Source: Escherichia coli | GTDB lineage: Bacteria; Pseudomonadota; Gammaproteobacteria; Enterobacterales; Enterobacteriaceae | Length of the DNA stretch: 64,000 nucleotides | Assembly (NCBI RefSeq): GCF_041886205.1 | Contig: NZ_CP169029.1 | Reading direction: 5' to 3' (one strand) | Part shown: in pieces, positions 18,718 through 22,000 of the stretch | Layout of the letters: each line of letters starts with the position of its first letter | How positions within the stretch are numbered: position 1 is the first letter of the stretch | Program-made: the position numbers and the translations under genes | The notes under the pieces: generated by a model | Told to the model about the DNA's origin: nothing | The model's database searches: none | What the model saw: only the letters and a program-made list of their open reading frames with translations

Positions 18718-19034
18718 CATATTTCGCATTTGAATATTGGTCAGGATCTCACACCTGCTTCATGTGAAACTCTTCCCTGATGATTTCTGCCGGGCTACCG
18801 GCTAGTTCTCTTTCGCAGTTTGCCAGGCGGTATCGGTATTTTCAGGAGGAAAAGACTCGGCATGTTTGGGATTATTAAGCTGACAATTCATACGATTACG
18901 GGAATGTGGGTCAGTATTGTGTTGTTCAAATTGATGACGAATGGCTGGAGTGGTTTCTACTTTCAGTGCTGTGTACTAAGCCTGGTATTCCTGACGGTTA
19001 GCTGGTTGTTGAGTGGTGAATGGTTAGCAGGAAA

Positions 19035-19068
19035 GAGTAAGGCTGAACCTTCACGTTCAACCTTACTC
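19035..19068. terminator. Hairpin between convergent gadW and mdtF
   Basis: Imperfect inverted repeat gagtaaggctgaac / gttcaaccttactc just after the mdtF stop. Confidence 0.4.
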
Positions 19069-19079
19069 TCATTTACACG

Positions 19080-22000
19080 TTACGCTTTTTTAAAGCGGGC
19101 AAAGAGATGTTCCACTACAACGAAAAAGACCGGAACGAAGTAAATTGCCAGCACTGTTGCGGCAAACATCCCGCCCATCACGCCGGTACCTACCGCGTTT
19201 TGCGCGCCAGAACCGGCACCATGACTGATAACCAGCGGCAGCACGCCGAGAATAAAGGCCAGAGAGGTCATCAGGATTGGGCGTAAACGCATCCGCGCCG
19301 CTTCGATGATTGCCTCTATCGGCGTTTTCCCTTCTTTCTGCATCATCTCAACGGCAAATTCGACAATCAGGATGGCGTTTTTGGCGGAAAGCCCGATGGT
19401 GGTCAGCAAACCAACCTGGAAGTAGACGTCATTACTTAAGCCGCGCAGATCGGTGGCCAGTAATGCGCCAACGACGCCTAACGGAACAACCAACATCACC
19501 GAGAACGGAATTGACCAGCTCTCATAGAGTGCGGCGAGGGCGAGGAACACCACGACCAGTGAAATCGCATACAGCGCAGGAGCCTGATTTGAGGATAACG
19601 CTTCCTGATACGATAGTCCGGTCCATGAGTAGCCGACGCCTGCCGGAAGTTTAGCGACCAGGTCTGCCATAAATTTCATGGCGTCACCGGTACTTTTCCC
19701 GGCCGCCGCTTCACCTAAAATCTCCATTGACGGGATGCCGTTGTAGCGTTCCAGTCGCGGTGAACCATAGGTCCATTCGGTAGACGAGTAGGCAGAAAGC
19801 GGTGCCATCGTGCCAGAGGCGTTGCGTACATACCATTGGTTGATGTTATCCGGCAACATACGGAACGGCGTGCCTGCCTGGACATACACTTTTTTCACCC
19901 GCCCCTGGTTGAGGAAGTCGTTCACGTAGCTGCTGCCGAAGGCGGTGGAAATTGTCTGGTTGATATCAGACAGCGCCACGCCCATCGCTTCAGCTTTCGC
20001 AGCGTTGACGTTCACTTTGAACATCGGCGTATCTTCCAGGCCGTTCGGGCGTACCCCGGTGACCTGATTCGGTGATTGCGCTGCCAGTGATAACAGCTCG
20101 TTTCGCGCCTGGGTTAGTTTTTCGTGTCCCAGGTTACCGTTGTCCAGCAGTTCCATATCAAAACCTGACGCGGTACCCAGTTCAGCCACCGCGGGTAAGT
20201 TGAACGGGAAGACGACGGCTTTATTGATACTGCTTAACGCAATCATTGCCCGCTGAATGATCGCGGTAACCGAGTTTTCCTCACCGACACGTTCAGACCA
20301 CGGCTTGAGACTGATAAACGCCAGGCCGTTGTTTTGCCCCTGACCGCTGAAGCCAAAGCCGCCAACGGTAAACACCGACTGGACATTATCTTTCTCTTTA
20401 GTCAGATAATAATCCGTCACCTGTTGCAGCACTTTCGTGGTGTTAACCATGGTGGCACCGGAAGGTAACTGCGCGGTGGTCATAAATACCCCCTGATCCT
20501 CTTCTGGTAAGAAAGAGGTCGGCGTGCGCAGGAACAGCACCGCCATCCCGGCGCAAATCAGCAGGTAGACCACCATGTAGCGACCGGTACAACGCAACAG
20601 CGAGCGGGTGCTATCGGTATAGTGTTGAGTTGATTTTTCAAACAGCGTGTTGAAGCGTGCGAACAGGGCGTTAGGTTTGTGACCGCCTTCCGGCGCGGCT
20701 TTCAGAATGGTGGCGCACAGGGCAGGGGTCAGGCTCATTGCCACAAATACTGAAAGCAGCATGGAGGAGATCAGCGTGATGGAGAACTGGCGGTAGATCT
20801 CCCCGGTTGCACCGCTCATAAAGGCCATCGGCATAAACACTGCGGAAAGAACAACGGCAATACCGACCAGCGCACGTTGGATCTGCCCCATCGATTTATG
20901 CGTCGCTTCCTTTGGCGGTAGCTTATCTTCCGCAATGACACGCTCGACGTTCTCCACCACCACGATGGCGTCATCCACCAGTAACCCTATCGCCAGTACC
21001 ATCCCGAACATAGTCAACGTGTTGATGGTGAAACCGACCGCCGACAAGATCGCAAACGTCCCGAGAATAACCACCGGTACGGCAATCGTCGGGATGATTG
21101 TGGCACGGAAATTCTGCAAAAACAGATACATGACCAGGAAGACGAGGATGATAGCCTCAACCAGTGTTTTGAAAACTTCCTGAATAGAAATTTCGATAAA
21201 CGGCGTGGTGTCGTAAGGATAAACCGTCTTCAGACTTGCCGGGAAATAGGCTGATAAGCGGTTCAGCTCCTCTTTGACTGCCCGCGAGGTATCCAGGGCG
21301 TTTGCTCCGGTAGCCAGTTTGATGGCGATCCCGGCAGCAGGTTTGCCGTTATAGCGCGCCACGGTGGAATAATCTTCCGCCCCAAGTTCGACGCGGGCGA
21401 CATCACGCAGCAGCACTTGCGAACCATCTTGCTGAACTTTCAACAGGATTTTGCCAAATTCTTCCGGCGTTTGCAGACGCGTCTGCACAATGATCGAGGC
21501 GTTTAGTTGCTGGTCTGCCGCCTGTGGCATGCCACCCAGTTGACCACCAGAAATCTGGTTGTTCTGCACCTTAATCTGGGAAATAACATCGGAAGGTACC
21601 AGGTTATATTTATTGAGTTTTTGCGGATCCAGCCAGATCCGCATGGCGTACTCGGAACCAAAGAGCTGTACGCTACCAACGCCCGCGGTACGGCTTAGCG
21701 GGTCTTTGATATTAGACGCTACATAGTCCGCGATATCGTACTGGTTGAGGCTGCCGTTATCAGAAATAAACGCCGCTACCATCAGGATATTACTGCTCGA
21801 TTTATCGACGCTAATCCCCTGCTGCTGCACTGCTTCAGGTAATGAAGGCATAGCGAGTTGCAGTTTATTTTGCACCTGAACCTGTGCGATATCAGGAGAT
21901 GTCCCAGTCTCGAAGGTCAGAGTGATAGAGGCATTACCCGCCGCATCACTGGTTGAAGACATGTACATCAGGCCATCAAGCCCATTCATATTTTGCTCAA

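Follow-up and report, generated by a model that had tools for sequence, protein, structure and literature searches.

A small open reading frame (ORF) in the spacer between gadW and the convergent efflux pump gene mdtF was analysed in a 64,000-nucleotide stretch of Escherichia coli DNA (contig NZ_CP169029.1 of assembly GCF_041886205.1, hereafter the window). The ORF is sORF15 of Schumacher et al. 2023 (mSystems 8:e01037-23; PMC10746267), already known and not a new discovery, and the evidence taken as a whole makes it very probable that it is a genuine protein-coding gene. The substitution pattern indicates purifying selection on this frame throughout the genus Escherichia. Beyond the 2023 paper, the present analysis adds the selection tests, a short orthologue in Escherichia fergusonii, a hairpin embedded in the ORF, and an overlap with mdtF in which the wobble positions of the two genes are shared. 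An earlier note on the window, made from the sequence alone, had described an unannotated 94-codon frame with a strong Shine-Dalgarno (SD) sequence and two hydrophobic segments that could encode a small membrane protein or be spurious; the first option is borne out, since the frame is kept across the genus and its substitutions show coding periodicity and an excess of synonymous changes, and on these same grounds a spurious frame is rejected.

The ORF and its published record

As the earlier note had read it, the frame opens with ATG (18862-18864) and spans 94 codons, namely 93 sense codons and a TAA stop (19141-19143), starting within the 362-nt convergent spacer and running its last 64 nt (19080-19143) antisense to the mdtF 3' end. 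The AGGAGGA sequence is strong, as had been claimed, with the qualification that the ATG lies 12 nt past AGGAGG by computation (11 nt past AGGAGGA), a gap at the long end of the range that works well in E. coli. Approximately 34 ATG-initiated ORFs of at least 93 codons are expected by chance per random 64 kb, but only approximately 0.4 of the same length that also have a strong SD 5-20 nt upstream; because the length is common by chance, the raw sighting was merely suggestive, and it is the comparative evidence that gives it significance. An upstream TTG start at 18820, which would give a 107-aa form, was rejected, as it has no preceding SD and is changed to TCG in an E69-like lineage, whereas the ATG is invariant. 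Among 5426 complete genomes of E. coli, 5414 contain the region, and positions 18700-19160 of the window are 100% identical to E. coli strain 720632 (NZ_CP025842.1). RefSeq carries no annotation at the ORF in 40 sampled genomes or in NC_000913.3, and so the description as unannotated holds for genome records but fails for the literature.

Schumacher et al. found sORF15 (93 aa) on inspecting the gadW 3' untranslated region (UTR) in ribosome-profiling data, placed it at NC_000913.3:3663464-3663745 (-) in their Table S7, and reported its SD, its position in the long gadW 3' UTR and its membership of the gadX-gadW transcription unit (PMC10746267). It is translated in K-12 and induced approximately 16-fold at pH 4.4, with a Ribo-seq log2 fold change (log2FC) of 4.21 and an RNA log2FC of 4.03 relative to pH 7.6 and an unchanged translation efficiency, alongside a Ribo-seq log2FC of 3.0 for GadW (PMC10746267). 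DeepTMHMM gave two transmembrane segments and a possible third helix, and a Western blot was positive for protein expressed from pBAD24-sORF15:3xFLAG, with no toxicity reported on over-expression (PMC10746267). The ribosome profiling and translational fusion that the earlier note had proposed as checks were therefore already published for exactly this ORF (PMC10746267). The window ORF and K-12 sORF15 agree at 281 of 282 nt and 92 of 93 aa, the difference being C instead of T at 19054 and hence Arg65 in place of Cys65; Arg65 is the commoner allele (24 copies versus 8), and the K-12 locus is colinear with the window at 99.9%. No follow-up paper on E. coli sORF15, and none naming the gadW-mdtF spacer, was found in the literature.

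Selection on the reading frame

Since published translation is no proof of function, selection tests were run on the frame. A genome scan provided loci from E. albertii, E. whittamii, two further Escherichia species and two divergent 'E. coli', which are 80-94% identical to the window from gadW to the end of mdtF, and a metagenome scan provided 44 more contigs. The ORF contains no indels in eight Escherichia lineages (80-94% DNA identity), whereas the 144-nt spacer upstream contains several, including an 11-nt deletion. All eight lineages give a 93-aa translation with the same stop, and AGGAGGAAAA and the ATG are invariant in every one of them, whereas the spacer further 5' of the SD varies. 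Among complete copies, 45 of 47 are intact at 93 aa, the exceptions being one in-frame 15-nt deletion and one nonsense change at W48. Disruption in close relatives, which the earlier note had named as the sign of a spurious frame, is not what is seen, the frame being intact across the genus.

Changes were counted by parsimony on a neighbour-joining tree in the part of the ORF that is free of mdtF. They fall 29/19/72 on the three codon positions (chi-square p=2.5e-9), and 72 of the 120 are synonymous and 48 nonsynonymous, where a synonymous fraction of 0.22-0.28 is expected (p<=3.6e-13). Pairwise dN/dS is 0.08-0.25 in the ORF frame versus approximately 0.4-3 in the two shifted frames, and polymorphic sites within E. 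coli are distributed 2/1/10 by codon position. The region is not simply slow-evolving, since dS in the ORF (0.17-0.78) equals or exceeds that in the adjacent mdtF 3' end (0.21-0.55). Antisense coding was rejected as a source of the periodicity, since 18730-19079 contains no ORF of 30 aa or more on the minus strand. Constraint peaks in codons 1-52, with 52 synonymous and 30 nonsynonymous changes (p=6e-14); it is weaker but still significant in codons 53-72, where the counts are 20 and 18 (p=6e-4). The conservation and synonymous-substitution analysis across Escherichia that the earlier note had suggested has been run, and its outcome is that of purifying selection.

A separate observation concerns gadW, which against E. 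albertii and E. whittamii shows a dS of 1.5-4.3 and a dN of approximately 0.14. It is far more diverged than the small ORF (dS 0.7-0.8) or the mdtF 3' end (dS 0.4-0.55) in the same two lineages, and this sequence pattern points to mosaicism or a recombination boundary close to the 3' end of gadW.

Family range and the E. fergusonii orthologue

An exhaustive hidden Markov model search of 1.84 billion representative proteins found nothing outside Escherichia, and the result was the same when the search was repeated with a profile of the core to which the E. fergusonii sequence had been added. The profile search matched only copies of this gene and, as the sole distant relative, a 54-aa protein from E. 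fergusonii ATCC 35469. Homologues of sORF15 with >80% identity have been claimed in Vibrio, Klebsiella, Salmonella and Enterococcus (PMC10746267), but these were not reproduced, every named match in the present searches being Escherichia, and mislabelled or contaminated assemblies are a likely cause of the claim.

The E. fergusonii orthologue shares its synteny with the window, comprising an AraC-family gene, the small ORF, a convergent RND permease, a membrane fusion protein (MFP) gene, a gadE-like gene, hdeD and hdeAB. Over the core its identity is 49%, and it retains only the two hydrophobic helices, with the invariant motif GWSGF-F-CC (G28, W29, S30, G31, F32, F34, C36 and C37). Its GTG start lies 19 nt past the gadW-like stop, and the ORF ends at codon 55, just short of a canonical terminator on the mdtF strand, so that the E. 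coli-type tail is absent; past this stop, the frame runs on in phase to a similar end (...RFLKRENRCSTTIKNTGTK*). The GadW-like protein of E. fergusonii is only 62% identical to that of the window, whereas MdtF is 93% identical, which suggests that the small ORF diverged along with the gadW side of the locus. The island beyond the gadW-like gene (4391-7981 of CU928158.2) also differs from E. coli: it holds a second AraC-family gene on the opposite strand and then a histidine-phosphatase-family gene, where E. coli has gadX-gadA.

Protein architecture

By hydropathy and charge, the predicted protein has two hydrophobic segments, at residues 3-25 and 32-52, which matches the two segments of the earlier note, and an uncharged loop of six residues between them. 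The tail (residues 53-93) carries a net charge of +9, with 11 K/R and two D/E, and the loop contains no K/R. An AlphaFold2 (AF2) model places helices at 2-26, 31-58 and 65-88, with a mean pLDDT of 64 and a pTM of 0.29; pLDDT is approximately 70-80 in the core and approximately 50-66 in the tail. An amphipathic tail helix is not supported, because the hydrophobic moment is 0.1-0.2 over residues 60-88 and only the lysine-rich extreme C-terminus is higher. No Pfam or NCBIfam family matches at E<=10, and no PDB sequence profile at E<=1.

Locus organization, overlap and embedded hairpin

The positions of the ORF, its parts and the surrounding features are collected in Table 1.

Table 1. Features of the gadX-mdtF region, in window coordinates.
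Feature	Position	Strand	Basis or remark
gadX	16797-17621	+	
GadY small RNA (sRNA)	17633-17746	-	Rfam match, 147.9 bits
gadW	17989-18717	+	ORF and annotation; upstream same-strand gene
Shine-Dalgarno-like AGGAGGA	18844-18850	+	Read directly; AGGAGG at 18844-18849
Small ORF (sORF15), including TAA stop	18862-19143	+	Listed ORF; 93 sense codons and stop
Core, codons 1-52	18862-19017	+	Helix 1 aa 3-25, loop TNGWSG aa 26-31, helix 2 aa 32-52
Tail outside mdtF, codons 53-72 and first two bases of codon 73	19018-19079	+	Basic; low-confidence structure
16-bp hairpin within ORF codons 58-70	19033-19070	-	10 nt past the mdtF stop codon
Tail within mdtF, last base of codon 73 to the stop after codon 93	19080-19143	+	Antisense to the final 21 mdtF codons and the mdtF stop
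mdtF	19080-22193	-	ORF and annotation; convergent gene for an RND efflux permease

Position 19080 is a third codon position in the small ORF and in mdtF alike, and the wobble positions of the two frames therefore coincide through the overlap. All 14 inferred changes in the overlap are synonymous in the ORF and fall at this shared wobble position, and conservation in 19080-19143 is inseparable from constraint on mdtF. The 16-bp hairpin (19033-19070) has a folding energy of -27.3 kcal/mol (z=-5.7) on the minus strand and is less stable on the plus strand, at -18.7 kcal/mol (z=-3.1). All lineages retain 15-16 of its 16 pairs on the minus strand, where UA is replaced by CG in one compensatory change (lineage L007) and U.G intermediates occur, versus 13-14 of 16 pairs on the plus strand. 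A simple terminator scan did not flag it, and the tract trailing it is only UCUUUCCU, whereas the equivalent hairpin of E. fergusonii is trailed by AAUUUUUGUU. It is probably either the mdtF terminator or a stem-loop that protects the mdtF 3' end.

The spacer also contains sORF14, a 13-aa GTG-start candidate published alongside sORF15 (18764-18805, +), whose frame is not conserved. One lineage has GTA in place of the start, the frame is closed by a stop at codon 7 in E. whittamii and shifted in E. albertii, and a further lineage has an 11-nt deletion; sORF14 is probably not a functional protein. A GC-rich hairpin (GCCGG-GCTA-CCGGC, 18789-18802, +) without a proper T-run overlaps the end of sORF14 and is partly lost to the 11-nt deletion in Escherichia sp. 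MOD1-EC7003.

Truncated forms in public data

Truncated or frameshifted versions of the protein in databases are mostly artefacts, and most of the truncated variants retain the core. The 46-aa form (P0054) arises from an identical complex change at CCTGG (18981-18985), a Dcm site, and the contigs that carry it are nearly all riddled with indels and have a fragmented mdtF. Since the same change recurs on different haplotypes in such contigs, the sequences indicate that this form is an assembly artefact. A 76-aa form results from a 1-nt deletion at 19032 that is seen both in assemblies prone to error and in a handful of clean contigs of K-12-like type, and no exact match to this allele was found in finished RefSeq genomes when it was queried on a K-12-like background. 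In loci L054-L066, identical indels at CCTGG (18981-18985) and at GGAAAG (19030-19032) recur on different haplotypes, in assemblies whose gadW and mdtF are likewise broken into fragments; these systematic errors have given rise to several spurious truncated 'proteins' in public collections, and one such fragment (P0044) has been labelled an HxlR-family regulator by one source. A further locus (L050) was set aside as a probable chimeric low-coverage contig, its upstream part having no similarity to the window.

Weighing the explanations

Translated noise, in which a chance frame in the gadW 3' UTR would be read by ribosomes on induction and yield a functionless product, is very improbable and has already been largely refuted by the selection tests. 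In its favour, ORFs of such length often arise by chance, the GC content of the region is only 42%, which makes it AT-rich, no homologue is found beyond one genus and no family matches, and the neighbouring candidate sORF14 is not conserved as a frame. Noise would not, however, produce three-base periodicity, excess synonymy and low dN/dS specific to the ORF frame, nor the absence of indels over 282 nt at 80% identity beside a spacer with several, nor a core kept in E. fergusonii though the GadW-like protein there has diverged to 62% identity. Constraint on RNA rather than protein, whether from an mdtF terminator or 3' UTR or from a 3'-3' antisense pairing of gadXW with gadE-mdtEF, to which the protein would be incidental, is improbable as a full account. 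The strongest signal lies in codons 1-52, upstream of both the hairpin and mdtF, and RNA structure does not yield the codon-position pattern or frame-specific synonymy. This account does draw on the conserved, covarying hairpin inside the ORF, which is more stable on the mdtF strand, and on the 64-nt overlap with mdtF coding sequence. Antisense RNA is, moreover, already used in the gadX-gadW operon, where GadY acts with RNase III processing. That ribosome density rises in parallel with RNA at an unchanged translation efficiency (PMC10746267) also counts for it. Constraint at the RNA level may well act on the tail in addition to coding, but not instead of it.

A type I toxin-like membrane peptide checked by the antisense mdtF 3' end is extremely improbable. 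A hydrophobic small protein with an antisense overlap would fit such a system, but 93 aa and two helices contrast with toxins of approximately 20-60 aa and a single helix, the antisense features (mdtF 3' end and hairpin) cover 19033-19143, the 3' third of the ORF, and not the ribosome-binding site, and the gene is single-copy, syntenic and genus-wide. It is also strongly translated in acid adaptation and was over-expressed for the Western blot without reported toxicity. A further alternative concerns extent: it is quite possible, if short of probable, that only the helical hairpin of approximately 52 residues matters and that the 41-residue tail of the E. coli protein is a by-product of the position of the next in-frame stop, which lies past the terminator hairpin and within mdtF. 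In its favour, the E. fergusonii orthologue stops at codon 55 before its terminator while the frame continues in phase beyond, the tail has the weakest constraint, a low pLDDT and no amphipathic character, and most truncated public variants keep the core. Excess synonymy in codons 53-72 is nevertheless significant, the length of 93 aa is fixed in seven lineages other than E. fergusonii, the tail frameshift at 19032 is missing from finished genomes on the K-12-like background queried, and a +9 tail beside helix 2 is what the positive-inside rule would select.

Several points weigh against the main reading, that of a genuine gene with the role proposed below. Constraint on the tail is not cleanly separable from the RNA hairpin and mdtF, the spacing of 12 nt between SD and ATG is long, and the E. 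fergusonii copy starts with GTG and has no visible SD. The AF2 model, with its low mean pLDDT, is of low confidence. The published Western blot does not represent protein at native level, because its plasmid was arabinose-driven and kept 15 nt 5' of the ATG, which cut AGGAGG to AGGA (Table S10 primers and Fig. S9C; PMC10746267). The W48 nonsense allele occurs in one metagenome contig (L021). In E. coli O121 strain 201805972 (NZ_CP119441.1), an IS66-family element inserted at approximately 18902, with IS1 beyond, splits the ORF and parts it from gadW, a disruption that is real but rare. The mechanism rests on analogy, since no homologue is found beyond Escherichia and neither a family nor a structure matches.

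Proposed mechanism

A scan for sigma-70-like promoters on the + strand found none in 18500-19300, which is weak negative evidence. Together with induction parallel to GadW, the 19-nt spacing in E. fergusonii and the statement of the published study (PMC10746267), this points to co-transcription of the small ORF with gadW, and sORF15 would be read from gadX-gadW or gadW read-through transcripts. Its product would form a helical hairpin in the inner membrane with the invariant GWSGF-F-CC at the periplasmic turn, and an N-in/C-in topology is predicted from the positive-inside rule, given the 11 K/R of the tail and the lack of any in the loop. The two-helix core would be the functional unit, and the E. 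coli tail a lineage-specific extension that passes through the probable mdtF terminator hairpin and ends inside mdtF.

The small protein may then bind and tune a larger inner-membrane protein of the acid-resistance regulon. By analogy, such a modulator role is the most likely one and is rated as reasonably probable, because the majority of small membrane proteins characterised in bacteria bind to a larger one. The choice of partner is more tentative: GadC and MdtF were named in speculation by the original authors (PMC10746267), and by analogy MdtEF is a possible but doubtful partner and GadC an unlikely second candidate. MdtEF leads because of its adjacency and because AcrZ pull-downs also enriched MdtF (PMC11539335), which makes contact between MdtF and small proteins plausible. 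The fullest version, in which sORF15 would be a dedicated acid-stress modulator of MdtEF-TolC (or GadC) with its gene interlocked with mdtF and with convergent transcription and double-stranded RNA coupling gadXW-sORF15 to gadE-mdtEF, is rather unlikely. The interlocking consists in the probable mdtF terminator hairpin and the last 21 codons of mdtF being read in the opposite direction as the tail of the small protein.

Comparison with known systems and significance

The 49-aa AcrB accessory protein AcrZ resembles sORF15 in its class, that of small inner-membrane proteins, which for sORF15 is predicted, and the sORF15 gene lies directly next to an RND pump gene. The differences are several: there is no sequence similarity (no Pfam or NCBIfam match at E<=10), sORF15 has two helices and 93 aa whereas AcrZ has one helix, and the sORF15 gene, probably co-transcribed with gadW, points towards the pump gene instead of running in its direction. 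sORF15 is neither a member of the AcrZ family nor a type I toxin. MgrB, MgtS, PmrR and SgrT offer a further likeness, being short hydrophobic proteins that are induced by the same stress regulon as the probable target, restricted to a genus or family and missed by annotation, but they differ from sORF15 in having defined partners and phenotypes. GadY, in the same operon, is a precedent for antisense pairing and processing that the 3'-3' overlap of gadW-sORF15 and mdtF could parallel; GadY, however, is a dedicated sRNA, whereas the overlap involves two mRNAs.

The acid fitness island is among the most studied stress loci of E. coli, and it holds a gene for a conserved, acid-induced and predicted membrane protein that is absent from the RefSeq and K-12 annotation. 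Purifying selection across the genus is an argument for the product being important to the cell, something that homology by BLAST in the original study had not established, and it directs experiments to the two-helix core and the invariant GWSGF-F-CC. Standard deletions of or insertions in mdtF and gadW may also alter sORF15, because its last 64 nt lie inside mdtF and its transcription runs behind gadW. The Keio design reportedly keeps only approximately the last 21 nt of mdtF, so that the last ~14 codons and the stop of sORF15 would be replaced. Phenotypes assigned to MdtF or GadW may therefore need re-checking.

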